Positions 9,922 through 28,800 of a stretch of 64,000 nt of DNA are shown here, in pieces. How positions within the stretch are numbered: the stretch's first letter is position 1; the number at the start of each line of letters is the position of its first letter. The notes beneath the pieces were generated by a model. It saw only the letters and a program-made list of their open reading frames with translations. It was not told where the DNA came from and ran no database searches. The stretch covers positions 15,955 to 79,954 of the forward strand of contig JAHHIK010000024.1 in NCBI GenBank assembly GCA_019358935.1. The letters are read 5' to 3'. Position numbers and translations under genes: made by a program. This stretch comes from Tolypothrix carrinoi HA7290-LM1 (GTDB taxonomy: Bacteria; Cyanobacteriota; Cyanobacteriia; Cyanobacteriales; Nostocaceae).

Positions 9922-12900
9922 TTAACGTGCAACAAGTGGGTTGTTTGTTTGCGTTTTTAAAGGTTTGGGTTCATTTGAATTTGACTCTCGACCAATATGT
10001 GAGAACCCTTTGCCCTCCTTCACTGCCAGGATGTATTCTTGGGTGAAATGTTTTAATCCTTGAAGTTGACCCTTGAGAGTAGGCGGATATTTTGCCATAA
10101 TGCGATCGCGTGCTTCGCGTTCGTTTTGGTTGTTGGCAATCGAAGCCAACATCATCTCGCCAGGGTAAAATCTGGTTCGCCAGAAGCGTCCACCTCTTTC
10201 AATCAGCCAGCAGGAGTAGAGGTCAGCAGCTCTGGGCAGAAAGGCTTCAGTGGCATTTCGACTAATAATGTTGGGGTCGTAACCCAAGTGACGTTGGAAA
10301 GATGCTACGCCGTTAGCAGTGATGCGCCCAGTAATTCTGTAAACCATGTTTTGCATAATTTGAGAACCCGTAGCACACTGGCAGATAGTGTCGGGGTCTT
10401 GACTTAGCAACAAGACAGAAATTCCATCTTTTCTTCCAGTTGCACAGAGTTCTCCCACGATTTGGGCGAAACCGTCACGACGCAGCAAAACTGAAAGTTC
10501 ATCCCCAATAAACAAACTTCTCGGATGTGAAAGTGCATTTCGGATGCAAGCAGTGTGAGCGTTAATTGCCATCAAGTAAGCATCTTGTTCATTTGACAGT
10601 CCACTGAGGGCAAAAAATTTAACTGCTGGCTCAGGTGAAAAGGTGCTTGGTCTGCCGATCGCTTTCCCCAAACGCGATGCTAATAAAGCATTTCCTTGGC
10701 TGAGAATTTGGTTGATGGCTTGTTTGTCCAATTCTTCAAAGGACTTGAGGTTGAGCCTTTCTTTACTGCAAAAACGTAGTAAATCTTTAAGTGTGGGGAT
10801 TTGCTGCCATTCAGGAGATTGCCAACCTTTCTCGAATGCTTGATTATAGCGGGCAATAATCTCTGGATCTCTAAGAAACATATCCAGCATTTGGAGTACG
10901 ATCGCATCAACTCGTTGAGCTAAGTGCGGGTTATGGACTTTCCCAAGTGCGATCGCCACCATTGCTTTGCGAATAAACTCTTTCCAAGATTCCATTCTTC
11001 GTTCTCTTTCTGGCTTATCAAACTTCCGCAAATCGGGTGGTTCTACCAGATTGCTTGAACCTGCCGAAATGTCATAGTACGCGCCTTGCTCACCCAAAAG
11101 TTCAATAGCTGTTTTGAACGTACTATTCCCACCGCTGCTAATATCCATCCCCACAACCGGGATATTGTTGGCGAGTGCTTCTACTGCGAAACGCCATCCC
11201 AAAACACTCTTACCCGAACCGGATTCTCCAGTAATCAAAGCGCGACTGATTTGGTCGTGGAATAAGTCAATAAAAATCGGTTTATTTCCCCGGTCTGTGA
11301 CAAATTCAACTCCTCTTTTATCTATGTCCCTAGGAATTGTTAAAGGCAAAATTCCCGCAACAGTTTCTGTGTCTAAGGTGAGTCGTCGTTCGCTAAAAAG
11401 TGAACCACTATGTAGCAGCCAATTCCAAGTTATCGGCAAACACTGCAACCAAATATCCCAAGCAATATTTCGCTCTCGAATAACTTTAGCTGTTCCAAAG
11501 CTATTACTAAAAACATTACAGGCATTGTTTAATTCCAAAGAGTCATTGCGGTAGACCAGAAAAGCCACAGCGCAATGAAGTGCTTTTGCACCTTTGTAAA
11601 GTCTGCGTTGTGCATCAAATGATTCTTCTTGTTTGATTTCTGCTCCGATGTCACGCCCTTGTCCCTTTGTTATTGCCCTGGTACTTGCCGCTTTAGATTG
11701 TTTGGCTTGACGAGCCAGATTGTCATTGATGATAAAATTGTTTCCGGCGCTAATTTCAATCCATGCTTCAGTGTCATGAACGTAGCTAGAACTCATTACT
11801 TCCCAAATCCACTTTAGTTGCTGTCTCGTATTGATCCAACCTGTTGGTGGCTCATACATAGTCAACACACCACATTCTTTGCCTTTGCCATTGAGATAAA
11901 CACGGTTGTGACTTAAGCGATGCTCTGGACAAGACGATCTACCTTCTTCTCCCTCAATCAAGACAGTACAAATATGCTTTGGGGTAGTCTTGGTTTCTGT
12001 TAGCTTGAAGCCCGATGGTGTTTCTTCTAATGTTAGTATTTGTGGAATTGGTGGAGCTTCACCGCTATTAAACCGTTTCCAAAGCCATTGCCAAAGGTCT
12101 GTTGCATTGCAAGGAGTAATTTCCAGCCCCATTTTGGTATTTAGTAGTAATTCCCAGCGGATGAAACCTTCATCAAATCCTTTGAGGAACAGCTTTGTAT
12201 AAAACTGTTCTTTGTAAAGCCGCGTGTTACCAGTAATGGAGCCAAGTAACGAGTCCGCAAGATTTTTTACACCGTCAATTACTTTACCGAGAAAGTCTCT
12301 AGATTGTTGTTCTGCTTGAGCATCCGCTGTCCAACTACAGAAAGCAATTTGTTCCCAGACTTGCCGTGTCCCGTTTTGGGTCATTTGTTGAAGTCGGCGC
12401 TGCTCATTCCGAACTAAGATAGAAATCGGCTTCAGATGGGTATTATCAGCTAGTTGAGTGAGTTCCTTTTGGCGATCGCTGTCGTCGCTGTAGCAACCTG
12501 CACAAAAAGTAATCTTTTCGCCGTTTGGGATATCTTTCATCGCTTCTTCAATGGAGTCAGCAAATCCCGAAACCTCACTTTGAAAAAGTAAATTGTGAAG
12601 TCCTTTGGTGTTAAAACCAAATATCAATTGGTATTGTGAACCATTATTAAGAAGAATTCCGGCAGCTTCTCGACCTTCTTTTTTGATTTCAACTAGGCAA
12701 CAGATATGTGTTTCATTTTGAAATGGCATAAACTTGCTCTTGCCTCCTTTTTGATTTGGTACAATTTTTGGCTTGAGCTTTACTTGAAAAGGTTGTGAGT
12801 TCTTGTGCTGTTTTAGGGTGTGTTGGCGATCGGAGTGTGAAAAGGGAGAAATATAGAGAGAGTCGCCGTTACACCATTCATATCCAGGTGGTTTTCGGAA

Positions 12901-13140
12901 TTTATCTGTAAAATGGTGTGGCTGATTGCCAGTTAAAAGCCACCAGCTGACGATTAGCCAAAACGAAACAGCAAAGAACCACCCCAAACCTAAACTGAAA
13001 AGTGCGTTTGTCAAGATATAGGAAACGACGAAAATTGCACACCAAGGTCCTATTTGGTTGGCAGGAATGGGACCGACACTTGCCTGTTTGCCTAAAATCT
13101 TATTAACACGGATAAAGTCTTTTTCTGGATCTCGTGGCAT
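9922..13140 (-). CDS. virB4: VirB4-like ATPase with N-terminal VirB3-like membrane segment
   Basis: Walker A GESGSGKS, Walker B FIGDE, ATGRK..LLSQ motif, N-terminal TMs; 1072 aa. Confidence 0.85.
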   Translation of the reverse strand: MPRDPEKDFIRVNKILGKQASVGPIPANQIGPWCAIFVVSYILTNALFSLGLGWFFAVSFWLIVSWWLLTGNQPHHFTDKFRKPPGYEWCNGDSLYISPFSHSDRQHTLKQHKNSQPFQVKLKPKIVPNQKGGKSKFMPFQNETHICCLVEIKKEGREAAGILLNNGSQYQLIFGFNTKGLHNLLFQSEVSGFADSIEEAMKDIPNGEKITFCAGCYSDDSDRQKELTQLADNTHLKPISILVRNEQRRLQQMTQNGTRQVWEQIAFCSWTADAQAEQQSRDFLGKVIDGVKNLADSLLGSITGNTRLYKEQFYTKLFLKGFDEGFIRWELLLNTKMGLEITPCNATDLWQWLWKRFNSGEAPPIPQILTLEETPSGFKLTETKTTPKHICTVLIEGEEGRSSCPEHRLSHNRVYLNGKGKECGVLTMYEPPTGWINTRQQLKWIWEVMSSSYVHDTEAWIEISAGNNFIINDNLARQAKQSKAASTRAITKGQGRDIGAEIKQEESFDAQRRLYKGAKALHCAVAFLVYRNDSLELNNACNVFSNSFGTAKVIRERNIAWDIWLQCLPITWNWLLHSGSLFSERRLTLDTETVAGILPLTIPRDIDKRGVEFVTDRGNKPIFIDLFHDQISRALITGESGSGKSVLGWRFAVEALANNIPVVGMDISSGGNSTFKTAIELLGEQGAYYDISAGSSNLVEPPDLRKFDKPERERRMESWKEFIRKAMVAIALGKVHNPHLAQRVDAIVLQMLDMFLRDPEIIARYNQAFEKGWQSPEWQQIPTLKDLLRFCSKERLNLKSFEELDKQAINQILSQGNALLASRLGKAIGRPSTFSPEPAVKFFALSGLSNEQDAYLMAINAHTACIRNALSHPRSLFIGDELSVLLRRDGFAQIVGELCATGRKDGISVLLLSQDPDTICQCATGSQIMQNMVYRITGRITANGVASFQRHLGYDPNIISRNATEAFLPRAADLYSCWLIERGGRFWRTRFYPGEMMLASIANNQNEREARDRIMAKYPPTLKGQLQGLKHFTQEYILAVKEGKGFSHIGRESNSNEPKPLKTQTNNPLVAR

Positions 13141-13834: not shown

Positions 13835-16093
13835 TTAAGCTTGCATTTGGTCTTTTTTTTGCTGTTCTTGACGTTCTAGCTTCTTGACATCTCTGCTATT
13901 CTGGGATGGTTGCGATCTAGCTGCCTCTGCTTCACCGAGCAAATTCTCCATTTCTTCGATGGGGATACGACACTTTCGGATGTCCGGCGGTTGACCGTCT
14001 ACTAAAACAGCCTCGAACACTTGTTCATCACCTTTGCGCGGGTCAAATCCTTGTAGTACCTTCAATCCCTTTAAAGACAGAATTTCAAATTCATACTTGG
14101 GCTGTTTGTTCTCTTTCCAGGTGAAGGTAGGCTCTTTTTCTCCGTTGAAACGTTTGGGGAAGGTTTCTTCAAACTTTTCGACTAAAGCTTGGGCAGTGGC
14201 TTTAATGGCATAGTCTTCTGACGACTGAGGTAGATTGAGTATGTGGTTTTTTTCATCCGGGTTAAGGTTGTCAGAATGAACAGTCCACTGTTTATCCTTT
14301 TTGGTGCCTGCGAATAGTTCTTGCCCGTTATTGCTTTTCAGGGTGAAAGAAAGTTGATCGTTTTGACCCTCAACAAATAAAGTGCTACCGCCAGTCAGAG
14401 GAATCCCCTCTTGAGGAGACTGCTGTGTTATTTGCGCTGTCACCGCAGCAAAATTCACCAAGGATTCAGCGCAGGCTTCCCGTTGCTGTTGGACTTTGCG
14501 TTGCACCACAATTTGTTCGAGAATGTCTTCTGGCTCGTCGGTTTCCAGACTTCCATTAGAGCTAAATTTCTCCTGTGTCGTGTGCAATTCTTCTTCATCG
14601 TCAGTTTCCAAAGCATCGGTGCTTTTATTTACAACAGTTGACTTTTGTTTTAACACTTTAAGTTCTGTAGGTGGCGATGATGCTCGCTCAACTTCCAATT
14701 TAGTAGTAGGTACTACGGCATTTTCATCAACAACTTCTTCTGGGCGAGATTGTGTTTGGGCTTTTGAAACGAGCTTTTCTTCAAGGTCATTAACGATCGC
14801 TTCCAGTCGATCGAGTCTCTGCGAAAGTTTGTTTAGGTATTTTTCAATCTGATCGAGTTGTTCACTAATTGGCGCGTTTTTATCCAGTTGCAGAGGTTGA
14901 GACTTGTATTCTGGGTCAAGTTGGCTCCCTAACTTGTCAATTTTCTCTCCTACTTGAGCAGCAGCGCTGGCGATCGGATTGTCTGTTAAGGTTTCTGACT
15001 GGCGGTTTTCTGACTTAAATATTTCAGCAAAGGGAGCCAATTCTTCTGGCAGTTCCGACTCTGGCGTACTTTCCACAACTTTAGCAATCCGTTTGAAAAG
15101 TTTGCCAATACGGGCATCCTTTTCTTCTAGGTTTTTAAGGATGTCCTCCAGCCGTTTCTCTTCCCCTTGTTGCTTAATCTGCTCTAAAAGCTCATCAACC
15201 CAGGCAATGCTTTTTGTTCCTAGCACAATCCCCAAGCTTGTCAGCTGACCAGCTAACCCGACTTCATTGATACCGTTGAGTTCACCACCTTTGGTAGCAG
15301 CGTTAGCGCTAAAGCGGGAAGCTTCTTCAGCCAAGTTGTCTGCTAAATCTTTTGCAAATTTAGACTTTTGGTCGTTTGAGTCTGGTTCAGTTTCCCGGTT
15401 TTTACGTTGGGGTTTAGTTACGGTGCGTGCTGCTGCTTTGTTCTGGTTTTTTGGTTTTGCAGAATGCACCTCGTCATCTTCAAGCAATACAAGAGGGTCT
15501 ACATCGTCCTCCTCTGCTTCAGCCACTTGAGGTTTCCCAGTGCGCTTTGCTCCTTTTGAAGCAGGTTTTGGCTGCGAGCGGTTGTTGGATTGTTTATTGA
15601 TTGACCGACGGGGAGTCGTTTCTTCTTCGTCATGTAATAAATCTTCTTCTAAGTCGTCTAGATCATTATTTAGGTCGAGGTCTTCATTTTCTTCGTCCAA
15701 GTCAAGGTTATCTGAATATAAAGCTTCTATCCCCAACATTTCCATCACATTGGATGGAGTAAAGTAGTCTTCATCCTTACTGGTGGCATTTCCCAGGTTT
15801 TTAATTAGGTACTTACCGCTGGTTCTTTGGCTTGGATCTTTGGTGAGGTAGAAGCGAAATCCTTTGATTTCGTCGCTACCTGGTTCTGTGCATAGTTCTA
15901 CAGCGATCGCAGCTTTTCCCGACTGTTCGCTATACTCCTCCACAAAATCTTTGAAGTCTTCTAGAGACTCAATGTCTCCTTCTTCTTGCATCGCTGCAAT
16001 TGCTTTGTCAAGGGTGTTTTCGATGTGGCGCAGCTTCCTGGTATCAGTCAGGTTTTGCCATTGTCTTTTCTTAGAAGTAGCTGTATAAGCCAT
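13835..16093 (-). CDS. Large acidic coiled-coil protein of the transfer region
   Basis: 752-aa ORF co-oriented with the T4SS genes; D/E-rich tracts and coiled coils. Confidence 0.75.
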   Translation of the reverse strand: MAYTATSKKRQWQNLTDTRKLRHIENTLDKAIAAMQEEGDIESLEDFKDFVEEYSEQSGKAAIAVELCTEPGSDEIKGFRFYLTKDPSQRTSGKYLIKNLGNATSKDEDYFTPSNVMEMLGIEALYSDNLDLDEENEDLDLNNDLDDLEEDLLHDEEETTPRRSINKQSNNRSQPKPASKGAKRTGKPQVAEAEEDDVDPLVLLEDDEVHSAKPKNQNKAAARTVTKPQRKNRETEPDSNDQKSKFAKDLADNLAEEASRFSANAATKGGELNGINEVGLAGQLTSLGIVLGTKSIAWVDELLEQIKQQGEEKRLEDILKNLEEKDARIGKLFKRIAKVVESTPESELPEELAPFAEIFKSENRQSETLTDNPIASAAAQVGEKIDKLGSQLDPEYKSQPLQLDKNAPISEQLDQIEKYLNKLSQRLDRLEAIVNDLEEKLVSKAQTQSRPEEVVDENAVVPTTKLEVERASSPPTELKVLKQKSTVVNKSTDALETDDEEELHTTQEKFSSNGSLETDEPEDILEQIVVQRKVQQQREACAESLVNFAAVTAQITQQSPQEGIPLTGGSTLFVEGQNDQLSFTLKSNNGQELFAGTKKDKQWTVHSDNLNPDEKNHILNLPQSSEDYAIKATAQALVEKFEETFPKRFNGEKEPTFTWKENKQPKYEFEILSLKGLKVLQGFDPRKGDEQVFEAVLVDGQPPDIRKCRIPIEEMENLLGEAEAARSQPSQNSRDVKKLERQEQQKKDQMQA

Positions 16094-16150
16094 TTTTTCA
16101 ATTCCCTTTTCCTTTTGAGACTGTTTAATGCACGGGAGGGCATTTCAGGT

Positions 16151-16606
16151 TTAGTCGCAACTCTGTCCTAGATCCTTTCGGGAGCAACCATCCTGCTGTT
16201 CAATCCTTTGTTGAAAAACCTTGCCCTTCAACTCCAAGTGATATTCTGCTAACTGCCTGCCGAACTCCCGTAAAATTTCATAGTTTTGCTGGGGCATTTG
16301 TCCAGCTGCTAAGGCTTTTTGGGCGAATAGGGCGAGGGAGTGCAGATGTGCGCTCATGCTTTTTAGTTCACGGGCTACCTCTTGATTGATTTCTGGCACC
16401 ACAGGACGAGGACTAAACTCGAAAGCACGTTTGCGGAGATAATCAGATAAGGTTTTCTCGCCTGACTGCGCTGTTCGCTTTGCTAAGTCCTCTTTCTCAA
16501 CTGGGGTGAGCCGCATTCGGACGACTTCAGTCCGATGGCAAGAGTCTTGCGTTAAGGAAGCGGCTCGGAACGAGCATTGCTCTTGTCTCAGTGTAGTTTT
16601 AGGCAT
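16151..16606 (-). CDS. mobC: MobC-like RHH relaxosome accessory protein
   Basis: VRMRLTPVEKEDLAKRTAQSGEKTLSDYLRKRA..PEINQEVAREL; resembles 54257-54679. Confidence 0.7.
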   Translation of the reverse strand: MPKTTLRQEQCSFRAASLTQDSCHRTEVVRMRLTPVEKEDLAKRTAQSGEKTLSDYLRKRAFEFSPRPVVPEINQEVARELKSMSAHLHSLALFAQKALAAGQMPQQNYEILREFGRQLAEYHLELKGKVFQQRIEQQDGCSRKDLGQSCD

Positions 16607-16908
16607 TTAGTTCAAAAAATTACTTTTTTTTACGTATCATTACGCCGATAAAAAACCACTTTATTGAGTATGACTACCAGATTTAAATTAGGCATTGATC
16701 TTAGAAAATTCATAAACATCGTTGCCTTTGTGAATTTATTTTAAAGCTGTATCTATACATCAATATTGATTGTTGTTTGGTTTTTTTATCACTAGCTTTT
16801 GCTATTACTAATTTCTCAAATAAAGTATAATTTTTGGGTATTTCTTTGGTTGGATATTTTGCTATGCCTAAAGCTACATGATTTAACAGGTAAAGGTTTT
16901 GGAATTTT

Positions 16909-16963
16909 ATATTCGATTTAATGACGACAAGAATGCGACTAAATTACGACTTGCATACGCATC
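16909..16963. repeat. Five degenerate direct repeats with exact 11-bp period (parC-like)
   Basis: CG cores at 16914, 16925, 16936, 16947 and 16958 (attcga, tgacga, atgcga, ttacga, atacgc); a further pair at 17019 and 17030. Confidence 0.55.
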
Positions 16964-17296
16964 AGGATTTCTGCAAAAACTTTTTTATTAAAGAGTTCAA
17001 TTATTTTCAAAAAAATTACGCCTTAAATACGTATTTTGGCTGAGTGAGTTTCTAGGAGTGAGATGTTTATAGTGGATTTATTAATCCTAAATTTTCAAGG
17101 CAACTATGCAAGATGTCAGCTTCAAGGTAGTAAATAGCACTGGAGCCAGCAGAACTAAGGCGATAGCGTTCGCGGAGCGTGCCCCTCAGGGCAAGCACTG
17201 CTGCCTAAGCGCAAAGCGCACGCTACGCGATCTGCCCTTCGCTGCTGCCTCCATGTCAGTAGCAAAGAAACACAGTAAAAAGGTGGGAGCATAATA

Positions 17297-17671
17297 ATGA
17301 ACGAAGAAATTACACTTCATCTCAAAATACGAGTTCCTGTCGATTCCCCAGACAGTAAGCTGCTCAGTTTCCTGAAAGATAGCCGTACCTCAGCAACCCA
17401 AATGGTGTTAGAAGCTGTTCGTGCTTACTGGTTGCCGGTGGCTTGTGCTAGCAATAAACATCCTGAACGAATTAAGGCGATCGCTCACGAGTGTTTACGA
17501 ACTTTGCAAATTCAGGAACGCTACATCAGTACAATATGCGAACTGGAAAGTTCTCTGGCATCTGTACCTGTTCATTTCGATGTGTCGCGCTCCAACCAGG
17601 AGTACCAGATTGCTGCTTTAGCTAAAAGTGAAAATGTGCCTTTTTCATCTCAGGAACCTCATTCATGTTGA
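17297..17671 (+). CDS. Small putative DNA-binding protein, paralog of the parM-linked gene 56623-57096
   Basis: Shared motif: MVLEAVRAYWLPVAC vs MMLHSLRAFWLPLAC. Confidence 0.7.
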   Translation: MNEEITLHLKIRVPVDSPDSKLLSFLKDSRTSATQMVLEAVRAYWLPVACASNKHPERIKAIAHECLRTLQIQERYISTICELESSLASVPVHFDVSRSNQEYQIAALAKSENVPFSSQEPHSC

Positions 17672-17898
17672 GAATTACTGGTCTAAGGATGCTTTATCGG
17701 AATCCAATTAAGTAGACGCGCAAGCTACAACATAACTGTGTTCCTGTCGATTACTCGACAGGAACGCTTTTTGCGCGAGCGAGTTTCATGCAGCATTAGT
17801 CCCAAAACTCATATTTTCGAGTCGGTGACACTCAGTCAAAGGGCAAAGTCAAAAACTAATAAAATAAATCTGAGGTGAGCTAAACCAGAGTAATAAGT

Positions 17899-18945
17899 AT
17901 GGCTAAAACTAAGAAATCAGAAAACGTTCCCAATGCGATGCAAGAAAAGTTCGATGGCATTGTGGCTTCTTCGGATGATTTTGCAAAACTTCATTTGAAC
18001 TCGGAATATGCCCAGTTGATTCGTTTTGCAACAGCAGCTCTGTGTCGGAAGAGACCATCTCCCCTGGCAAGCGGTAAGGAGAAAACTTGGGCTTGTGGCA
18101 TTACCCATGCTATTGGTATGGTCAATTTTCTCTTTGACCCTTCACAAAAACCCCATGTTAGTGCCAAAGAAATCTACAATTGGTTTGGTGTAAGTCCCAG
18201 CACCGGGCAGTCAAAATCAAAACAGGTACGAGATATCCTGGATATGCGGCAGATGGACCCTGATTGGTGTCTGCCGAGTAAGTTAGACAACAACCCGATG
18301 GCTTGGATGATTTCTGTGGATGGATTTATCCTGGATGCCAGGTCTGTTCGCCGAGAAATACAGGAAGAAGCATACGCACGGGGTTTGATTCCTTATATTC
18401 CGGCTGATGGGAAACCGGAAGATATTGATGAGAAACAAGCATCATCCCAACAAAGCAAACCAGTTAACTTTTCTCCCGATGCCCTGTATGTGCTAGATGT
18501 TTTTATAATTGACGGTCCAATCGCAGAGAAATTTATCGCCAAAAATCCAGTGATATCCCGAACCATTGAGATTAAAGGCAGCAATACCCTGGAAGACCTC
18601 CATAAAATTATCTTCAAAGCATTTGATCGCCAAGAAGAGCATATGTACGAATTTCAAGTGGGAGGTTGTGGACCACAAGACCCAAATGCTAGAAGGTATG
18701 GCTTGAAACAAGCATTTTCTTTTTTCCATTTTGCAGAAGCGCCTACAGGCGATGTGTCTAGCACCCCAATTGCTTCTCTGGATTTATCTATTGATGATGC
18801 TTTTGGTTACTGGTTCGATTTTGGTGATGATTGGTGGCATCAGATTAATGTAACCAACATCGCAGACAAGACTCCAGAGAGCAAGTATCCCAGAATCACT
18901 CTTGTGGTTGGGGCTAGCCCTCCTCAATACGCGGATTTTGAGTAA
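17899..18945 (+). CDS. DUF6398-like domain fused to a plasmid pRiA4b ORF-3-like domain
   Basis: N-terminal WACGITHAIGMVNFLFD; C-terminal RTIEIKGSNTLEDLHKII..HMYEF..YWFDFGDDWWHQI. Confidence 0.75.
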   Translation: MAKTKKSENVPNAMQEKFDGIVASSDDFAKLHLNSEYAQLIRFATAALCRKRPSPLASGKEKTWACGITHAIGMVNFLFDPSQKPHVSAKEIYNWFGVSPSTGQSKSKQVRDILDMRQMDPDWCLPSKLDNNPMAWMISVDGFILDARSVRREIQEEAYARGLIPYIPADGKPEDIDEKQASSQQSKPVNFSPDALYVLDVFIIDGPIAEKFIAKNPVISRTIEIKGSNTLEDLHKIIFKAFDRQEEHMYEFQVGGCGPQDPNARRYGLKQAFSFFHFAEAPTGDVSSTPIASLDLSIDDAFGYWFDFGDDWWHQINVTNIADKTPESKYPRITLVVGASPPQYADFE

Positions 18946-19005
18946 CAAAAACGGGCGTTACTGATTCATAGGATGATTTCGGCTCATTGTCGGTTCGCGG
19001 ACATA

Positions 19006-19163
19006 TGTCACTGTAAGGATAAGTTGAGCAACTCTGAAGGCATAAGTTGAGCAATAGATTCCTTGAAACCCGATTAAACTCTTGTATAGCGTAAAAGTAG
19101 AAATAGAAGTTTTGAAAGCATAAGTTGAGCAAATGTTATATTTAGAAACTATAAGTTGAGCAA
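19006..19163 (+). repeat. tnsAB-proximal end with four TnsB-binding repeats
   Basis: ATAAGTTGAGCAA at 19019, 19042, 19120 and 19151. Confidence 0.9.
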
Positions 19164-19258
19164 ACATTTTCAATATGAGCGCTCATAAATACATAACGTT
19201 GTGCTGTGATAAACAGTAGGAGGAACTCGGACTTAGACCCAGGATTAAAGAAAGCATT

Positions 19259-22006
19259 ATGCTCTCGAGCCAAGAGTTTAATAACTGGTGTCATACTCAA
19301 CACCTCAGTCCAGCAGCGCAAGCAGTAATCTCAGAGATTCGCAGCACCAACCCATCTCGTCGAGTAACAGGGGGTAGGAAAAATGTTTGTGGCTCTTACC
19401 CCAGTAGAAAAATGGGAGTAACAATCCAATTCGAGAGCCACCGTAACGAATTAGCACGTATTTACGAACTAGAAAACGACCCCGAAGTACTCGAATATTA
19501 CGACCAACCAAAGCCCATCGAGCTAGTTTACTCTTCAAAAAGTGGGCGTAAAAATAGACATCAATATACACCCGACTTCTTTATTATTCGGACCGATTGC
19601 GCTCTTTGGTGCGAATGCAAAACAGAACAAGAACTAAACAAATTAACTAACATTAGTCCAAATCGATATTGCTTCCAGTCAGATGACAAATGGCATTGTC
19701 CCCCAGGAGAAAACTATGCTCGTCTTTATGGTTTCGACTTCCAAGTATGGTCAGATGCTCAAATTAACTGGAACTTTCAACAAAACTTAATTTGGCTAGA
19801 AGATTACTTCGGTTACTCGTCAGGAATCATAAAAGAAACTGAAAAGTTTTTGATTGTAGACATTGTTAAAAATCATCCAGGGATAAGCCTTGCAAAGCTT
19901 TTAACAAATAAAGATATCAATCCCGATAGCGTTTATTGGTTAATTGCTTTTAATGAAGTTTACGTAGAACTTAATAAAGTAAAACTCTCGCAAGCTGAGA
20001 CAGTACTCATATTTATTAACCAAGATGTTGCTTTATCTTATGAGTATCTAAACAAGAGTGAATCACATCAAAAAACCAGTAATCAAACAGGATTGCAAAT
20101 AGCTGTGGGTACTTGTATTTCCTGGGATGGAGAATCTTGGGAGATAGTAAATACAGGAACTGCAACTACTGGATTATTACGTGCAGATGGCAAGCTTATA
20201 GAGCTACCAAATACAGCATTTACAACGTTAATTGATAATTGTAAAATAGCTGGAGTCGGTACAACAGAAAGCGAAAATATTAAAGCAGCATCAACCGGAA
20301 TTCTACAACAGGCAACTTGTCTTGACATTATAGAAGCCAACCGTCGCTACAGTTTAATACAACCATACTTAGTGGATAATCCTCCAATATACCCAAGCAG
20401 TACAATCCGTCGTTGGCGCAGTCAGTACCAAAAAGCTTTATACATCTACGGAAATGGATATATAGGATTACTGCCTAATCACAATAGTAAAGGCAACCGT
20501 ACAGCAAAAATTGATGATAAAACCAAAGAATTTATGCTCGAATTTATACTAAAGCATTATGAAACACCCAAACAACGAAGAAAATTACGGGTTTATGAGT
20601 CATTTGTTTTAGCTTGTCAAAACCACGAACCGCCATTAAAACCTCCATCCCGAATTACATTTTGCGCTTATATCAAAACTAGAAGCGGACATCATCAAAC
20701 TAGAAAGCGTCTTGGTAATCGGGCAGCTATTCCAGAAGAGCCATTTTACTGGGAATTAGAGCAAACTACGGAAAGACATGGCAGTCGTCCCTTTGAGATT
20801 GTCCACATTGACCATACTCAACTTGATATTGAATTAGTCAGTTCCCTCGAATCTCTAACTAGTTGTCATATTGCCACAAACAAGGATTTTCATCAAAATT
20901 TAGGTCGTCCTTGGGCAACCTTTATGGTTGATGCATATAGCCGGAAAATTTTAGCCGTTTACCTCACTTTTGATGAGCCAAGTTATCGAACTTGTATGAT
21001 GGTAATCCGCATAGTAGTGCAGCGATTTGGTCGATTTCCTCAAAATATAGTTGTAGATAACGGTGCAGAGTTTCACAGTCACTATTTTGAACAATTATTA
21101 GCATATTACACTTGCACTCTCAAATATCGACCACCAGCACATGCCAGGTTTGGTTCAATTGTTGAAAGATTATTTGGGACAGCCAATACGCAGTTTATTC
21201 ATGAGTTACAAGGTAATACCCAAATTAAACGTCTTAACCGCCAAGTTACCTTATCAGTTAGTCCAGAACGATTAGCAATTTGGACATTAGAAGAACTATA
21301 TTTAGCTATATGCGAATGGGCATATTCAGTTTATGACCAAAGATTGCATCCCACATTAGGTAAAAGCCCTCGCGATGCTTTTGTCTACGGACTTACCATT
21401 GGCGGAAGTCGTTTACATCGACGAGTCGAATATGACGAATTATTTAACATCTTAACTCTACCTGCACCCGATGGGGGACAACGGAAAGTTCAACCCGGAA
21501 AAGGGGTAAAAATCCATAATATTTATTACTGGGCAGACATATTCCGCGACCCAGAAATTGAGAAATCAATGGTCTGGGTTCGGTATGACCCTTGGGATGC
21601 AGGAGTTGCCTATGCTTTAGCAGGAAAACAATGGGTAAAATGCATTTCTTCTTACTATCAATATTTCCAAGGACGTTCAGAAAAAGAAATTCGACTCATT
21701 AGCGCAGAACTTAATCAGCACAAACGTAATTATGAGAGAAACCGGACAATAACGGATAAAGAATTAGTGAATTTTTTAAATTATCAACAAGCATCTGAAG
21801 GGCTTTTTCTTAAACAACGCTTGCATGATGCCGAACATTACAAAATTCACAAAATTATTCAAAATCGTTCTGACGAACCACAGAAACTATATCCTACTTC
21901 TTCGGAAAAATCAAATGATATTGAGTTACAAGAATCTAATGAGACTGAGACAAATTGCCATTTCAACTCCGACACAGAAACCTTTGAATATTATGGAGAG
22001 TTTTAA
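19259..22006 (+). CDS. tnsAB: Fused TnsA endonuclease-TnsB DDE transposase
   Basis: N-terminal TnsA motifs (QFESHRNE, YYDQP, YTPDF, CECK); DDE core HIDHT, VVDNGAEF, VERLFG; Mu-like C-terminus (VRYDPWD). Confidence 0.92.
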   Translation: MLSSQEFNNWCHTQHLSPAAQAVISEIRSTNPSRRVTGGRKNVCGSYPSRKMGVTIQFESHRNELARIYELENDPEVLEYYDQPKPIELVYSSKSGRKNRHQYTPDFFIIRTDCALWCECKTEQELNKLTNISPNRYCFQSDDKWHCPPGENYARLYGFDFQVWSDAQINWNFQQNLIWLEDYFGYSSGIIKETEKFLIVDIVKNHPGISLAKLLTNKDINPDSVYWLIAFNEVYVELNKVKLSQAETVLIFINQDVALSYEYLNKSESHQKTSNQTGLQIAVGTCISWDGESWEIVNTGTATTGLLRADGKLIELPNTAFTTLIDNCKIAGVGTTESENIKAASTGILQQATCLDIIEANRRYSLIQPYLVDNPPIYPSSTIRRWRSQYQKALYIYGNGYIGLLPNHNSKGNRTAKIDDKTKEFMLEFILKHYETPKQRRKLRVYESFVLACQNHEPPLKPPSRITFCAYIKTRSGHHQTRKRLGNRAAIPEEPFYWELEQTTERHGSRPFEIVHIDHTQLDIELVSSLESLTSCHIATNKDFHQNLGRPWATFMVDAYSRKILAVYLTFDEPSYRTCMMVIRIVVQRFGRFPQNIVVDNGAEFHSHYFEQLLAYYTCTLKYRPPAHARFGSIVERLFGTANTQFIHELQGNTQIKRLNRQVTLSVSPERLAIWTLEELYLAICEWAYSVYDQRLHPTLGKSPRDAFVYGLTIGGSRLHRRVEYDELFNILTLPAPDGGQRKVQPGKGVKIHNIYYWADIFRDPEIEKSMVWVRYDPWDAGVAYALAGKQWVKCISSYYQYFQGRSEKEIRLISAELNQHKRNYERNRTITDKELVNFLNYQQASEGLFLKQRLHDAEHYKIHKIIQNRSDEPQKLYPTSSEKSNDIELQESNETETNCHFNSDTETFEYYGEF

Positions 22007-23115
22007 TGTCAACCGAAAAAAGCTTTCCTCGTGATTTACTCCAGCGACCCCAACACGATAGAGTTGCTTATTTCCAGCAATATACAATGGCACATCCGAA
22101 ATTACTACTAGCTTTTGAGAAACTAACACATGCAATTGATGACCCGGCTTCTGTTGCTTTAATCTTTTTATTTGGTCCAACTGGTGTTGGTAAAACAACT
22201 TTACTGCGTCGCATGACGACTAAGTTGCTAACTTCAAATATTGAAAAAATGGAACAGGATAAAGGCTTTATTCCTATTGCTGGGATTGAAGCTGCTACCC
22301 CTGAATTTAGTAACTTTAATTGGAAGGATTTTTACTTACGTGCTTTAACTGTTCTCCAAGACCCATGCCTGGAATTACCAGGTTACGGTCAAGTTACTAA
22401 TTCAAAGTTGAAAACTTCGCTGGAAACTGCACTTAAATATCGTCAACTTCAAGTTTTTTGCATTGATGAAACACAAAATCTAAGTAAAGTTGCCAGCGGA
22501 CGTAAATTACGCGACCAAACTGATTGTATCAAATCGCTGGCTAACTTGACGGCTGTTAAGTTTGTACTGGCGGGTACTTATGATTTATTAATACTCCGAA
22601 ATTTGAGTGCCCAACTGTGCCGACGTAGCCTGGATATCCATCTGGAACGCTACAAAGCCGAAAATCCGGAGGATTTAAAAGCTTTCAGAGGTATTGTCCA
22701 AACCTTTCAACGCCATTTACCTCTTGAAGTTGAGCCGGATTTACTTAAACACTGGGATTTTTGCTACGAGCGCAGTTTTGGTTGTGTGGGTATTCTAAAA
22801 GATTGGCTATGCCGTGCGTTTTTTTGTGCATCTTCTCAAGGAGCTAAAACTCTGACTATTAAACACTTGCAGTTGTCTGCTTACTCTACTGAACAATGCA
22901 TGATTATAGTCACTGAAACTAAACATGGAGAAAAGCAGCTTGAGTTAATAGAGGATAGTTCTGCTTTAAGAATTGCTTTAAGCTTAGAACATAATAATGA
23001 TGCTTATGCTTCAGCTACTCATATTGCTACAGCTCCAAAAAAATCCCGTCGTGACAAAGTAGGCGATACTAAACCTCAGCGTCGTCCAGTTGGAGGAGGT
23101 CAAAATGCCAGTTGA
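22006..23115 (+). CDS. tnsC: TnsC AAA+ ATPase
   Basis: GPTGVGKT, CIDETQ, AQLCRR; coupled to tnsAB by a TAATG overlap. Confidence 0.92.
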   Translation: MSTEKSFPRDLLQRPQHDRVAYFQQYTMAHPKLLLAFEKLTHAIDDPASVALIFLFGPTGVGKTTLLRRMTTKLLTSNIEKMEQDKGFIPIAGIEAATPEFSNFNWKDFYLRALTVLQDPCLELPGYGQVTNSKLKTSLETALKYRQLQVFCIDETQNLSKVASGRKLRDQTDCIKSLANLTAVKFVLAGTYDLLILRNLSAQLCRRSLDIHLERYKAENPEDLKAFRGIVQTFQRHLPLEVEPDLLKHWDFCYERSFGCVGILKDWLCRAFFCASSQGAKTLTIKHLQLSAYSTEQCMIIVTETKHGEKQLELIEDSSALRIALSLEHNNDAYASATHIATAPKKSRRDKVGDTKPQRRPVGGGQNAS

Positions 23116-23995
23116 ATATTTGACTAACTATGAGTCTTGGGATTTTGACACAAATGAACTTCCTCTTCGTAGTCCTCTTTACTCTCTTCTTCCTATCGGT
23201 ATTGGTACACCCGCAGTTGAAAGTTTTACCAGTTACCTGACTCGCTTGGCGGCGGCTCATGGTGTTTCTGTTACTACTTTGATTCGCTATAAAATTGCAC
23301 CATTATTTATCGAGAGCAGTATTGCAACAGATTTACTATCCGCCTATATTATCAGAATACTTATGGATGCTTCGCCCAAAAAGCCTACAACGCTCTTGAT
23401 TCAAACTGCTGGATTTTGGTTAGACCTAACTCAAAATGCTTCTAAGCTCGTCTGTGCTGTTAAAACATTGACTGGTAGGCAGGATATTCATTATACGTCG
23501 CTACTGTCAATGCAAGGGTGGCGGCTAAAGTTTAACAATATTTTTCATTTCTCACAACGCTGGTGTCCTAGCTGCTATTCTGACTGGCGCCACGGCGGAA
23601 AGCCTATCTATCAACCTTTGTTATGGGCTTTGGAACCTGTAACTGTTTGCCCCCATCACCAACGTTACCTACAGTTGCGATGCTTTGATTGCAATGGTTT
23701 ACAGCCATTTCTCGTTTTGGACAAAATTCAAGTTGGTTGTTGTTGTATATGTGGTGCATGGCTAGGACAAATTTTAGAGTCGGAGGCTAATTTCAAGTTG
23801 CCCGACCTTGTTTGGGACTTGTGGTTTGCTCAAGTTCTGGGAAAACTCCTGGCTGCGACACCAGAACTTGTTACAAATCCGACTAGAAAGGAAACTCGGT
23901 TTAGAGAGCGCCCAATATTTCATAGTCTAAATTGGTTTTTAAGGCAGTGTTATCAGATAGGAATCAATCCTGTTGAATATTTGAGTAATTTTTAA
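23105..23995 (+). CDS. tniQ: TniQ-family protein (short, 296 aa)
   Basis: ESFTSYLTRLAAAH, WCPSCY, CPHH, CFDC, CCICG zinc motifs; no long TnsD-type C-terminal region. Confidence 0.9.
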   Translation: MPVEYLTNYESWDFDTNELPLRSPLYSLLPIGIGTPAVESFTSYLTRLAAAHGVSVTTLIRYKIAPLFIESSIATDLLSAYIIRILMDASPKKPTTLLIQTAGFWLDLTQNASKLVCAVKTLTGRQDIHYTSLLSMQGWRLKFNNIFHFSQRWCPSCYSDWRHGGKPIYQPLLWALEPVTVCPHHQRYLQLRCFDCNGLQPFLVLDKIQVGCCCICGAWLGQILESEANFKLPDLVWDLWFAQVLGKLLAATPELVTNPTRKETRFRERPIFHSLNWFLRQCYQIGINPVEYLSNF

Positions 23996-24081
23996 ATGAA
24001 ACTTGGGTGTATTTGAGTTCAACTCGCTTCGGCCTGAAGTCAGGGCGCAACATCCGTAGCGCTATACTTTTCTCCTCCTTC

Positions 24082-24162
24082 TTTGTAAGTATAAGGCTAG
24101 TTTATTCAAGCAGAAAGCATAAAGTAAGCAACAAGCATCTCTTAAGATGCTTACAGTTAACA
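24082..24162. repeat. Degenerate (relic) transposon end inside the element
   Basis: TTTGTAAGTATAAG..GAAAGCATAAAGTAAGCAA..CTTACAGTTAACA aligns with the live distal end TTTGTAAGCATAAG..GAAAGCATAAAGTGAGCAA..CTTACAGTGACA (24978-25053). Confidence 0.75.
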
Positions 24163-24206
24163 AATGGTTAAAAGTATCAGTAAGCTATGCCCCGAACGCC
24201 CTAAAA

Positions 24207-24240
24207 TATCTATACGAGTGTATCTCCATCAGTGTAGATA
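24207..24240. promoter_or_regulatory. Palindromic operator overlapping the cargo gene start
   Basis: TATCTATAC-N16-GTGTAGATA, ending on the A of the ATG. Confidence 0.65.
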
Positions 24241-24827
24241 TGGTGAAAATAGAGCGCGAGTCTATCAACTTCAAATTGCCAAAATCGTTATGTGACGGAC
24301 TCAGAGCCGCTGCGGAACAACGCAACACTACCGCCACTGATTTGGTAATTCAAGGGTTGCACCATATTTTGGGGGATGTACCTGGTGTGGAGGCTAGTGT
24401 CGAAGTTCGTTTAGACCAACTTGAAGAAGAATTTTGGCTTCTCAAACAAAACATTAATCTAACCTGCACCAACCCCGATCAAGAAAGTAGGTTAACTGCA
24501 TTGGAGAATAAACTCGAAGCTATGAGTACTCGACTCGCTCAGTTTGAAGGGGCGATAACGCAACTCCAATATAGCGTCAATTCATCAAAATCCCGCAAAT
24601 CGGGACACCCCTATCAATTTAGTTCCCAACCGCCACAACTCCAACCCCTTGATGAGAATAAACTAGCTTTCAGACTTAATACTACTGTAGCAACATTAAC
24701 TGAAAAACGTACAACCCTCAGTCCCAAAGAGTTTGAATCTTGGACAAGAGACAAAGACAGTATTAGACGTGGATGGCAGTTCAACGATAAAGATGGTCTG
24801 TACCATGAAGTAAGCGCTTTCTTTTAG
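24240..24827 (+). CDS. Transposon cargo: RHH/CopG-like DNA-binding protein with coiled coil; paralog of 25130-25705
   Basis: MVKIERESINFKLPKSLCDGLRAAAEQRNTTATDLVIQGLHHILG (strand-helix-helix pattern); start placed by alignment with the paralog. Confidence 0.8.
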   Translation: MVKIERESINFKLPKSLCDGLRAAAEQRNTTATDLVIQGLHHILGDVPGVEASVEVRLDQLEEEFWLLKQNINLTCTNPDQESRLTALENKLEAMSTRLAQFEGAITQLQYSVNSSKSRKSGHPYQFSSQPPQLQPLDENKLAFRLNTTVATLTEKRTTLSPKEFESWTRDKDSIRRGWQFNDKDGLYHEVSAFF

Positions 24828-24977
24828 GAGTGAATGAGAATTGCTGGTGGTGACATACCCTCTCTGTTGCACCCAACATCTATTACATTACCCGAAGCGC
24901 TTCAGCAACACTGTAAAAAATGCATCCAATACCGAGCGAGTTCAAGAATTATCTATTGAGCGATTGGAAGCATTAGG

Positions 24978-25053
24978 TTTGTAAGCATAAGTTGAGCAAG
25001 TCTCTTTGAAAGCATAAAGTGAGCAACTTGCTCAACTTATCCTTACAGTGACA
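24978..25053. repeat. Distal transposon end with TnsB-binding repeats
   Basis: ATAAGTTGAGCAA at 24987, ATAAAGTGAGCAA at 25014, inverted TTGCTCAACTTAT at 25028, terminal ACA at 25053. Confidence 0.9.
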
Positions 25054-25096
25054 ACATATTTTGAACTAAATATTAATACTCATCCTCGTTGTAAAC

Positions 25097-25130
25097 TATC
25101 TACACGAGCGTATATAACTGGGTGTAGATA
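25097..25130. promoter_or_regulatory. Palindromic operator of the plasmid RHH gene; candidate Tn7-like attachment determinant
   Basis: TATCTACAC-N16-GTGTAGATA, a perfect 9-bp inverted repeat ending on the A of the ATG. Confidence 0.7.
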
Positions 25131-25705
25131 TGGTACGAATCGAACGGGAATCCATCAACTTCAAACTCCCCAAACCCTTAGCTGACGCACTTCGAGCCAA
25201 AGCTGCCGAGCTAGACACCACCGCTACCAATTTAGTCATCGAGGGGCTGCATCACATCCTGGGAGAGATTCCGGGTATAGAAGATAGTGTAGAAAATCGT
25301 CTACAACAACTCGAAGCTCAATTAAACCACCTCGCTAATAGTACAGATAAGCGTGTAGACACTGATGTAGACAACAGACTTAGTTTGTTAGAGCAGAAAC
25401 TAGAAGCACAAGCATTACAGTTGGCAAAAATTGAAGGAGTTATAACAACCCTTAGTCAACAGCGTTCGCATACAGGTGGTGGCTACAGAAGGCAAGCTTT
25501 TAATTATCATCCCCCACAACTAGAACTTCAGCCTTACACGGGGGAAAATTTAGCTAAAAGATTGGGAGTTGATATCGCAACCCTAACAAGAGAGCGAGAA
25601 AACAACACCCAGGCTGAGTTTGAATCGTGGTGTCGTCGCAAAGACCCAAGTCCGGTGGGGTGGCGTTTTAACTCAAATTCGGGACTTTATCATCCCGTAA
25701 AGTAA
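25130..25705 (+). CDS. Plasmid RHH/CopG-like DNA-binding protein with coiled coil
   Basis: MVRIERESINFKLPKPLADALRAKAAELDTTATNLVIEGLHHILG; C-terminal LAKRLGV..W.RRKDP..GW.F motif shared with the cargo copy. Confidence 0.8.
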   Translation: MVRIERESINFKLPKPLADALRAKAAELDTTATNLVIEGLHHILGEIPGIEDSVENRLQQLEAQLNHLANSTDKRVDTDVDNRLSLLEQKLEAQALQLAKIEGVITTLSQQRSHTGGGYRRQAFNYHPPQLELQPYTGENLAKRLGVDIATLTRERENNTQAEFESWCRRKDPSPVGWRFNSNSGLYHPVK

Positions 25706-25868
25706 ATGGTGATGGGTTCTGTGTAAGCGTTGCGCTCTTGCGGCAGCGCAAATCGCTTTATAAAGGCTCATGTCGGAGCAATAATACTTATAACTTAGGT
25801 TTCTACCACAAGCTTACTCTCTTACACGATCGCTTAAACTTGCGTGTCATTCACCTTGACACCTATAC

Positions 25869-28800
25869 CTACGCTAATTCCATCTCTTTCCTTTTGCCTG
25901 ATCCCCTGGAATTTGCTTCTAAGACAGGAGATTGTAGTTGGGCTGATTTTGATGTCAGAATAATCATCTCTTGCAATTGCAGTGCCCCTGCATCTGAGAG
26001 GAGTAGGACTTCTTCTCCGGTATGAATATTGCCTTTGCAGATAGTTCGCTTGGATTCCGAACGCACAAAGAAATCACCATTGGGTTGCACGTAAGCAGTC
26101 CAACTGTTGCCAATTTTGAACTGTTTAGTTTCAGTATTATCAGGCTCTCTTTCTTGCCTGCGTTTGTACGTATTACTGACGGCTTCAAAGAGCAAATCTT
26201 GCATTTCTTTGCGCCAGTCTGAGCTAATGTTAGTCTGCGTGGTACTGTCTGTCTGGGTTTCGCTTTGGGCGTCTGGCAAGCGAATAGAATTAGGGTCAAT
26301 ATTGAGTACAACGGTAGCACCCAACGGTGACAATGAAGCTTGGAATGTAGTGCCGATAGGTAGTTTAGGGGTATCAGGGGCGAAGGTTCCCAGATTTTTA
26401 CCATCAATTTGAATAATGGGGATGCCATTGTAGCGGTAGAATTCTGGGTGCGATTCAGTCAGCTCAAAAGTGCCGACTTCTAGAGTGACTTTCTGCTTTT
26501 TCCATTTTTTATTAGCAAAGTCTTCATTCTTCAAGTCGTTGTATTTTATGCCTAGCACTTTGATTTCATCAAATTGAAACTGTTGTAGTTGATCTACAAT
26601 TTCCTCCATGAATAAGTGGTAGGCGATCGCTCCTTTTCCCGGTTCAGTTCTCGATTCCACCCAGGCGCAATCAGCAGGTGGGACAATCATTACATTGTCC
26701 GGCATTTGAAGAGTGTCAATGTCGTTGTAGTTGTTGCCGTATTTAGCTTCTAGCTTTTCGATTTGTAATGGTGACAAGCTTTTTAAGGCAAACTCAACTA
26801 GCGGTAATCCTGGGTGAACTGTTGCCTCATATTCGATGCTTTTTTGGTCGAGGGATTCTTTCCATTCTTGAACTTTCTTTCCAAATGGAACTTGCAGGAC
26901 ATAGATATCTCGCGGGAGTGCCTCATGGAGTAACTCGTAGTCTGGTTCAAGGGAAAATGTCATTTTGAGCGTTTTGGCAATCTTTAGACATTCCTCTTTG
27001 TGGCTATCGATGTCAAGTTTGGTATGTTGCGTATGCCAAGTAGCAGCAGCGGCGCGAAAACGTTCTTCTTTTGTGGGGAATAACTCATCGATTTCGGCAC
27101 GGTAGCTATCGTAGAGTTTCCCTAACTCTTCATTGAAAACGTCTTTGTCGTCTCCAATTCGTTGGGCGATCGCCGCAATATCTTGTTTAGATCGTTTTTT
27201 GAGTTCTTCAGCCCATTCGAGTTCATCTACGCCGAATGTCTCTTTCGGAAACAGATACCGAAATTCGTGGCGTTCTCGGTGTCGAATACGTGTCGCTTCC
27301 CAGTGGGGATTTACCGCTTCTCTTGGGATTACATTAATCGGGTTCGGTTCCTCAGCAGGCATAGGAAAAGTTTTGTAAAGTCGGTTGTCTTTTTTGAAGT
27401 CGAAGAAGTAACTTGGATGAGCTTCCGACCATTTTTTCGAGTCTGGTAGCAAGTTTTCCCCGTCGATTTCCTTGATATCCTCCAACCGTTCTGCACTTTT
27501 TTGGTAATCAACTTCAGGCTGTAATGCTATGAACAGGCGATTTAGCAATCTTGTTTTCTTGCGCTCAAACAGTCGGGGGTTTTCATCTTCATTCGGGACT
27601 GATGATTGGACTCTTCCAATTGTTGTGGCGACTAAACCAATTTTATTCTGGGAACTGGCTGCGGCTATGCTTGACAAAGTTCTATATTTTTGCTTACCCT
27701 GAGCATCTTTGACTGCGGTGTAGGGAACTTTAGGGCGTTGTTTAACTTCAGCATAGCGCCTGGGTTCTCCGGCGCGTAGAGTTTCAGCAGCAATCTGGGG
27801 TAGCATTTTAGATGGAGCAACTACCATTTGGTCGCCGTCAAAGTCAGCTTGGTGGTATTCTTCAGCGTCTTTTGGCTGCATGAAGACAACACCTTTGTAT
27901 TTCATTAGTTCTAGTTTGTGAACATTTGTATAACGTCTGATGTTATCGCTGGAGACAATTGGAAAGCGAGTGGTGATAATATCGCCTTCGCTTAGGTGAG
28001 GTACGCAGATTGTTCCTCTTTCCAAGTCTGTACATGGCATAGCCATCCCAGAACTAAATTTGAAAGCTCCCTTGATTGCCAAGTCACACCAGCGATTGGC
28101 AACGTATTGTCGCATAGCATCAGCAACAAAGGGGCTGTCGATCAAAAGACCAAATTTATCGTTGCGTAGCAGAGTAACGAGCCGTAATTCTTGTTGTTCT
28201 TGATTTTTGTCAGTATTTTCACGTTCTAATGAGTCATCAACTGAGAGTGCAGCATATTCCCTGGCACGCTGTTGTTTCTTGTCGTACTCTTCAACAATGT
28301 GTTTAGCTAAAGCGAGGGGGTTGCGTTGGAGCTTGGCTAGTTTTTCGGCTTCTTTTCGAGTTGGTTCTACGAAGTCTTTCTTGAGAGCCTCTTCGCTATA
28401 CCAAATGCTAAATTGCCAGCTGTTGTCATAGTCGATTACTTTAGCATTACCCCGGTTGCCCAAAGCACTTCTGGGTAACTCATATTCGCCGCAAGGGATT
28501 AAATCAAGTAAAAGAGTTTTCTTAATCCCTTTAATTGAGGAGCGATCCATAACAATATCAAACCCCTCTGCTTCTAAAGTGGCATTGGGTAGTAAAGTGC
28601 CTTTAGCCAAGAAACTAGTTAAGGATTGCTCCGGATTATCTGCCCAGTTTTCTAGCCAAGCAAAGCGAAATTGGAAGGGTCGGTTAGCTAAACCTCCCAT
28701 GAGTTTAACAAGGCTAGGTGATACTTGTCCATGACAGTCTCCGGTTTTATATTTTTCGGCTTCAGCTTTCTCTTTGGGGTCTTTGCTGTTATAGTCCACA

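Follow-up and report, generated by a model that had tools for sequence, protein, structure and literature searches.

Organization of the transposon

The analysed window, a stretch of 64,000 nucleotides from Tolypothrix carrinoi HA7290-LM1, contains a Tn7-like transposon of 6,048 bp (19006–25053) with four genes, all on the + strand, as are the ends and operators described below. The termini form a perfect 26-nt inverted repeat, TGTCACTGTAAGGATAAGTTGAGCAA (19006–19031 versus the distal end), and the element is flanked by direct 5-bp target-site duplications with the sequence ACATA, the left copy at 19001–19005 and the right copy at 25054–25058. The transposition genes encode a fused TnsA–TnsB protein of 915 residues (19259–22006; Tn7_TnsA-like_N, 9e-09; rve, 2.5e-10; Mu-transpos_C, 6.8e-06), the AAA+ protein TnsC of 369 residues (22006–23115; AAA_22, 3.1e-14; TniB, 8.5e-11) and a short TniQ of 301 residues without an extra DNA-binding domain (23090–23995; TniQ, 2.6e-15). 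The fourth gene, referred to here as the cargo gene, encodes a protein of 195 residues (24240–24827). The combination of a TnsA nuclease and an rve transposase, an AAA+ TnsC, a TniQ, a 5-bp duplication and TGT...ACA ends is that of Tn7-like transposons, and the presence of TnsA and TnsB in a single polypeptide corresponds to the fused-TnsAB group, which includes Tn5469 and McCAST. The element is not a CRISPR-associated transposon, since only four genes and no cas genes lie between its ends, and no CRISPR repeat array was found within 16000–26500. The TnsA domain and the lack of a resolvase gene between the ends likewise separate it from the res-site hunters of the Tn5053/Tn402 type.

The two ends are asymmetric. 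The tns-proximal end (19006–19163) consists of the terminal TGTCAC and four spaced TnsB-type repeats, which span 19007–19163 in one orientation. The distal end (24975–25053) is compact, with three packed sites, of which two are oriented like those of the other end and the third is the inverted terminal site. The same three-site build recurs in two cargo-less relatives (L001 and L003), and the architecture of the compact end is thus a family trait. The cargo gene is separated from this live end by 147 bp (24828–24974) that match only other copies of the element and are unlike the DNA that follows three other alleles of the gene that were compared.

The element is present as one copy in its own genome. 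At least six copies in a single other genome, each with its own flanks, lead us to infer that it transposes; further 5-bp duplications in this transposon family are GGAGA (L094) and CCAAA (Scytonema sp. PCC 10023). The 80-kb contig also carries a full-length RecG helicase gene (38907–40994; NCBIfam equivalog, E 0) and conjugation genes (NikA-like, 16151–16606; TraC/VirB4-like, 9922–13140), and a plasmid or an integrated element would both fit this juxtaposition.

The relic end

A segment between tniQ and the cargo gene (24082–24162) had been described in the first-pass annotation as a decayed copy of the live distal end. The alignment confirms that it is a true copy of 24975–25053. The local alignment of 24060–24245 with 24960–25135 has a score of 56, compared with 17.3 ± 2.4 for 1000 dinucleotide shuffles, none of which reached the observed value (z 16.1). 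The end blocks alone (24075–24165 versus 24970–25056; z 8.4) and the spacer with the operator alone (z 9.6) are each significant, with 0/1000 shuffles, and the DNA that precedes the two ends (23996–24081 versus 24828–24977) shows no relation (z 1.1; 174/1000). The relic and the live end are built of the same three blocks, arranged and oriented alike: two sites that run from inward to outward, and the inverted terminal site, finishing with CTTACAGT(G/TA)ACA.

Both ends face an operator that abuts an ATG. The operator of the cargo gene, ATCTATAC-N16-GTGTAGAT, occupies 24208–24239, and that of the resident gene beyond the transposon, ATCTACAC-N16-GTGTAGAT, occupies 25098–25129, with its centre 60.5 bp from the live terminus. 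There are 77 nt between the relic terminus (24162) and the cargo ATG (24240), and 76 nt between the live terminus (25053) and the resident ATG (25130). The operator half-site ATCTAYAC starts 45 nt from the terminus in the relic and 44 nt from it in the live end. The one-base difference reported earlier therefore holds, although the values themselves are not the 44 and 43 given at that time.

The term decayed applies to only a part of the relic. Sites 1 and 2 are kept and the terminal inverted site is scrambled. When four lineages are compared, 35 of the 36 columns of the block CTAGTTTATTCAAGCAGAAAGCATAAAGTAAGCAAC, which comprises site 2 and the left spacer, show no variation; in the core of the terminal site, the same is true of 3 of 14. 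The terminal site has one sequence in the window, another in the two Scytonema and a third in a metagenome-assembled genome (MAG), which indicates that the cleavage-proximal site was scrambled more than once. With its middle site conserved, the relic may still bind TnsB. The cargo operator is invariant in the Scytonema copies except for two spacer bases. Site 1 of the relic (24085–24088) is interrupted by foreign DNA in a lichen metagenome (run X1) and in Scytonema sp. PCC 10023 (G522, contigs C172 and C305), and contigs break there.

In cargo-less relatives, the compact end lies about 40–85 bp past the tniQ stop codon (about 40 bp in L001), behind a pyrimidine tract. The same tract precedes the relic, whose position thus coincides with the end of the cargo-less relatives and identifies it as the original end of the element.

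The cargo gene and its resident paralogue

The gene facing the live end (25130–25705, 191 residues) is a paralogue of the cargo gene, and the two proteins are 50% identical (98/196). In the alleles that were read, those of the cargo and resident genes among them, the ATG directly follows an inverted repeat, TCTACA-N18-TGTAGA. Homologues of the target gene are present in 102 plasmid records. The nearest non-cargo relatives of the cargo protein are 74–75% identical to it; the gene on plasmid p5 of Calothrix PCC 7716, where the upstream site is empty, is 70% identical, and the best plasmid relative of the flanking gene reaches 62%. A maximum-likelihood tree of 52 rows was calculated from every third of 120 listed matches and four more, together with the copies of the cargo and the alleles that were targeted. 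In it, the cargo copies form a clade (support 100/96) that is sister to plasmid alleles including that of Calothrix PCC 7716 p5 (100/99), and the window target gene lies in the opposite deep half of the tree. The targeted alleles fall into at least three clades, and the cargo into a fourth. The dN/dS ratio of the cargo gene (0.36–0.41) is comparable to that of tniQ (0.31–0.45), with 0.21 for tnsC and a dS of about 0.10, and the cargo is therefore a gene kept by selection.

The AlphaFold model of the cargo protein (pLDDT 78) has an extended segment (residues 1–14), two helices (residues 15–27 and 32–44), a coiled coil and a small, helical C-terminal domain. A Foldseek search with the model gave no match at E ≤ 0.001 and only weak local fits, to Arc (1baz; rmsd 1.3 over 40) and PutA (2rbf; 0.9 over 39). 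No curated RHH profile in Pfam or NCBIfam matches the cargo or target proteins, the match of the N-terminus alone to CopG_antitoxin is not significant (E 0.23), and a PDB profile search returned coiled coils only. The proteins are accordingly referred to as RHH-like (Arc/MetJ/CopG), a designation suggested by the model and the weak local fold matches. The C-terminal 55 residues (24630–24827 in the cargo, 25505–25705 in the resident gene) are modelled as three helices and a hairpin, resemble a winged helix, have no Pfam match, and represent a possible second DNA- or protein-binding domain. Operator-like half-sites at 12-nt spacing also occur inside coding regions: there are three in the resident gene (GTACAGAT, GTGTAGAC and ATGTAGAC; 25341–25372) and others in the L094 gene (+221 and +233), and they are absent from the cargo allele. 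They possibly constitute a second binding site of the RHH-like protein.

Distribution of the relic–cargo module

Relatives of the element were sought by a TniQ scan of genome contigs and by a scan of 389 family genomes and of metagenomes for the terminal 26-mer. Scytonema tolypothrichoides VB-61278 contains six assembled tns-proximal ends and six assembled compact ends, all with different flanks, and in all four copies in which the region is assembled the relic, the cargo gene (91% amino acid identity) and the live end are present. The module of relic and cargo is also found in Scytonema sp. PCC 10023 and in metagenome contigs (cargo 93% identical), at unrelated sites. The occurrence of the module at different flanks implies that it moves as a unit and predates the insertion in the window. 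Since it is carried to other sites, the insertion beside another allele in the window is an event separate from the capture of the cargo, and the intact ACATA duplication shows that the whole unit arrived there in one transposition.

A cargo-less element ending at the relic position, which the first-pass annotation had proposed to look for among relatives, was not retrieved in this TniQ clade. In four sequencing runs, no contig joins position 24162 to foreign DNA and no cargo-less form was seen. P0123 (TniQ 73% identical) is represented by contigs whose maximum length, 5208 bp, is what an element without cargo would have, and its best match among the 389 family genomes is the window itself. 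One contig of the MAG G740 breaks off where the relic terminates; this 92%-complete assembly includes a live-type end, and no cargo gene was found in it. An order-wide TniQ search yielded only relatives of 43% identity or less.

Junctions and target-site specificity

The first-pass annotation had taken two insertions at the same offset in diverged alleles as evidence of site specificity. The junctions show that the subfamily inserts with its compact end facing the operator of the plasmid-borne RHH-like family, and that it does so from either side. Besides the window, six independent junctions face an operator, four of them upstream of the gene (71–76 nt from the ATG) and two in mirror image at codon 15. 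The upstream junctions comprise a metagenomic case (L085/L086, with the allelic L090) that lies 71 nt from the ATG and is 5 bp nearer to the operator than the geometry of the others; a mini-element with the duplication GGAGA, 76 nt from the ATG (L094, in G431); a junction at 74 nt (L099, in G508); and a solo relic of a compact end with two sites, 74 nt before the gene, in a congener of the window organism (G506:C17; L175, 1468–1511), where no transposase gene lies nearby and the gene is 77–82% identical to the window target. The first mirror-image case is a full element in Scytonema sp. PCC 10023, present in identical form in metagenome Ga0209902, that interrupts a homologue at codon 15 with the duplication CCAAA; it is inverted, so that its compact end points toward the operator, 45 nt from the ATG-side edge of the latter. 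In the second, from run X5, a derivative of 1,701 bp that retains relic and cargo is inserted in codon 15 of another allele in the same orientation, on a contig that does not include the operator itself. The distances from the terminus to the operator centre in eight cases are 60.5, 61.5, 55.5, 60.5, 61, 58.5, 61.5 and 60.5 bp.

A pattern consisting of the end terminus, 78–94 bases and the back-translated sequence ERES matched 5 of the 389 family genomes, and its reversed control matched none. Four of the five matches are operator-facing junctions; at the fifth, in G526, there is no gene of the RHH-like family. The site specificity proposed earlier is thus borne out by six further independent junctions but is not exclusive, as seven junctions of the same subfamily lie elsewhere. 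These seven, all compact-end junctions that carry the exact 26-mer, come from S. tolypothrichoides (six) and G740 (one). None has an RHH-like gene nearby, and a scan of their flanks revealed a single half-site in only one. No occupied site was found among 72,556 plasmid records. A PRiA4_ORF3-like gene to the left of the element was also considered as the true target and rejected, because the RHH-like gene is not consistently found next to it and other junctions are without such a gene.

On contig C15 of S. tolypothrichoides, a homologue of the target gene is cut twice by tns-proximal ends, at nt 171 and 282: codons 1–57 abut one such end, and a second, inverted one abuts codon 95 onward. If both elements are whole, their compact ends would face the missing piece of about 120 bp, which would hold the half-site cluster; its close homologue in L094 has two operator-like half-sites (the +221 and +233 sites mentioned above). 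The missing piece is absent from the assembly, as a DNA search with the L094 counterpart gave nothing below E 0.5, and sequencing runs screened for the C15 junction contained at most 0.36 of its words in any run.

Several further arrangements were observed at the ends of the family. The mini-element of L094 (1447–1526; G431:C91) measures 80 bp and is reduced to three sites, a terminal one, a single inner one and the inverted terminal one, which may be about the smallest mobilisable Tn7-like unit that can be expected. In L126 (1406–1462; G608:C256), the compact and tns-proximal ends of two elements lie 5 bp apart, as tandem elements that share one site. A motif, TGT(C/A/G)GGTTCGC(A/G)GAC, abuts ends of the transposon family in either orientation, in the window (18988–19005) and in L086, L099, L100 and L175; it occurs once in the window, which is the chance level for a short pattern. 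In L099 it leads into four direct repeats, each about 21 bp long (CGTCGCAGACTAATTGAAAAC). The motif could represent the end of another transposon family or plasmid iterons. The window and G506 have ATTGTSGGTTCGCG in common to the left of the insertion point, and the DNA further left differs.

A sister subfamily and the mode of target recognition

A sister subfamily has about 80% DNA identity in tnsAB and 53–54% identity in TniQ, encodes a TniQ of 305 residues and carries no cargo. In 14 loci (L001, 11083–11220; L092, L093, L102–L105, L109–L111, L118, L125, L127 and L129), its compact end adjoins one conserved motif (ACAAAATAAGATACCCTTATCTTTTATCC...; ACAAAATAAGATACCCTTATCTTTTATCCGAYATAAACTACGATTAA), with ACAAAATAAGATACCCTTATCTTTTATCCGAYATAAACTACGATTAA starting about 20 bp from the terminus. 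This motif constitutes a second, undescribed attachment site. Because the compact end of the sister subfamily lies at one motif in these loci, the compact tns-distal end is the target-proximal end, and the choice of target follows the TniQ clade. L001 has the duplication GTATA, and 29 bp from its other end a gene for a site-specific integrase begins. In L003 (11060–11545; Calothrix brevissima), tniQ and the compact end are separated by about 480 bp with inverted repeats of their own (GTGACCAAA...TGAACCATA), which give the appearance of a small nested element from another family.

How the target is read bears on the role of the cargo. TniQ homologues with HTH domains have 410–519 residues, compared with 301 in this element, and we consider it close to an even chance that the signal for such a short TniQ is an operator occupied by a repressor of the RHH family rather than bare DNA. 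An occupied operator is favoured by the symmetric use of the palindrome, the tolerance of diverged operators and the retention of a repressor paralogue. The sister subfamily, on the other hand, combines an equally short TniQ and the absence of cargo with a fixed DNA motif in 14 loci, which favours direct reading of DNA. TniQ itself might then recognize the operator, perhaps as a dimer on the palindrome, with the RHH-like proteins uninvolved and the cargo a mere passenger. This account, a possible one that we hold with some doubt, is also in line with the half-sites nearest the end, which share RTMTRYAC, and with the conserved block of the target, which starts about 37 bp from the insertion point, like in Tn7. 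It is harder to reconcile with a TniQ that is so much shorter than homologues with recognisable DNA-binding domains, with targets that belong to at least four clades and differ in their half-sites, and with purifying selection on the cargo like that on tniQ. The repressor-occupied operator would gain a further dimension if the captured gene were the transposon's own target selector, the short TniQ docking on a copy of the repressor bound at related plasmid operators; we regard this extension as unlikely. If it is true, insertion would occur about 61 bp to either side of the operator with the compact end toward it, the regulator of the target would have been turned into a homing device, and the fossil end would mark the moment of capture.

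Origin of the cargo

The relic likely marks the end of a cargo-less ancestor that was inserted 77 nt upstream of another allele of the target gene, and this gene later became the cargo. In the proposed sequence of events, the ancestor would have occupied the upstream site of an allele A with its compact end facing the operator. A second compact end would then have come to lie beyond the gene of allele A, in the manner of a composite transposon as in Tn6022, and would have taken over as the outer end, so that transposition from it carried the gene, its operator and the old end. The terminal site of the old end would subsequently have been inactivated, leaving a relic inside the cargo region. 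Insertion of an ancestor upstream of another allele and capture of its own target, as the first-pass annotation had envisaged, agree with the position of the relic, the presence of the module elsewhere and the tree. We infer the gain of the new outer end, for which spare ends are at hand in the 80-bp mini-elements and solo compact ends that persist.

The relic and the live end, each with its gene, are collinear from the end to the stop codon, as would be expected if the live end and the flanking gene (24978–25705) had been duplicated in tandem where they lie and had then diverged. The Scytonema copies, in which relic and cargo stand beside other flanks, and the intact ACATA, which implies that a single transposition brought the whole unit, make such an origin very improbable. 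A plain duplication of this segment, named beforehand as an outcome that would overturn the proposal, is also excluded by the 50% identity of the two proteins, their closer relatives elsewhere and their placement in opposite halves of the tree. Chance, with the element near the gene by accident and the relic a coincidental resemblance, has a practically negligible probability: the seven junctions elsewhere are all that speaks for it, while 0/1000 shuffles reach the relic alignment, six more junctions lie within 5 bp of the same geometry and the reversed control matches 0/389 genomes. A different matter is whether the relic has become a working internal TnsB-binding module, disabled for cleavage and kept by selection for target immunity or for regulation of tniQ or the cargo. 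The invariance of site 2 and the left spacer (35/36) at a synonymous divergence of 0.08–0.17 among the four lineages, set against 3/14 for the terminal core, would fit this function, although the conservation could also come from an overlapping promoter or terminator; a scan of 23900–25250 found no promoter-like site and only a weak hairpin on the minus strand. We consider such a module rather improbable, and it is compatible with the origin of the relic as an ancestral end.

The probable capture of the target by a cargo-less ancestor makes the relic a rare piece of physical evidence for the gain of cargo by a site-specific transposon, which appears to have swallowed its own target and disarmed its inner end. 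Minimal cyanobacterial Tn7-like elements with a single TniQ have been described as being without a known attachment site, and the present subfamily has a sharply defined one, the plasmid operator of a widespread backbone gene, which is used symmetrically from both sides. The symmetric geometry, the short TniQ and the conserved cargo paralogue of the target's regulator render a protein-guided, retargetable selector testable in a system of four genes and 80-bp ends.

Comparison with known systems

No Tn7-like element directed at a gene of this kind, or bearing a copy of its own target, emerged from a full-text search of the literature. Tn7 with its TnsD/attTn7 (glmS) pathway is similar in its heteromeric transposase with a TnsA-type nuclease, its AAA+ TnsC and its selector of the TniQ family, and shares the 5-bp duplication, the asymmetric ends and a fixed spacing between the insertion and a conserved sequence, which lies beside the element rather than being interrupted by it and always faces the same end. 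In Tn7, TnsD reads attTn7, and the conserved target block lies at a similar distance (about 37 bp) from the insertion. By contrast, TnsA and TnsB are fused in the present element, TniQ has 301 residues and is devoid of the TnsD-type C-terminal domain, and the target is the promoter–operator of a plasmid gene that is approached from both sides. The target-proximal end also differs, since it is the tns-proximal right end in Tn7 and the end far from the tns genes here.

The Tn5053/Tn402 elements, known as res-site hunters, were reported in work from 1999 to insert in a TniQ-dependent manner, at clustered positions, close to a plasmid site to which a DNA-binding protein is bound. They are without TnsA and carry their own resolvase, TniR, with a res site; the present element has TnsA and no resolvase, and its insertion positions are sharper.

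The cyanobacterial elements with fused TnsAB (Tn5469 and Tn5541) are alike in architecture, with a fused TnsAB, TnsC, one TniQ and a minimal size. In the parts of their account that bear on this group, Hsieh and Peters (PMC9881144) describe fused-TnsAB Tn7-like elements in cyanobacterial hosts, some of them only on plasmids, and Tn5469 as an element that has no cargo and seems to be without a sequence-specific attachment site. Unlike Tn5469 as portrayed there, the present element has a defined site and a cargo; its TniQ matches in Microchaete diplosiphon and in Tolypothrix PCC 7601 plasmids are 34–36% identical.

Tn6022 offers two further parallels. According to the relevant sections of Faure et al. 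(PMC10293859), it combines a short TniQ with TnsF, a derivative of a tyrosine recombinase that was co-opted for the selection of targets and whose role was shown. The present element likewise has a short TniQ followed by a gene for a putative DNA-binding protein of another family, and unlike TnsF its candidate partner would be paralogous to the repressor of the target itself. Tn6022 in AbaR islands, as characterized in the corresponding passages of Correa et al. (PMC11014353), captures host DNA in a manner 'akin to composite transposons'. In both cases, DNA beside a resident Tn7-like element would become cargo once a second end lies beyond it. By contrast with the capture described for Tn6022, the present element probably acquired its own target gene together with the operator, and its inner end persists in disabled form as the relic.
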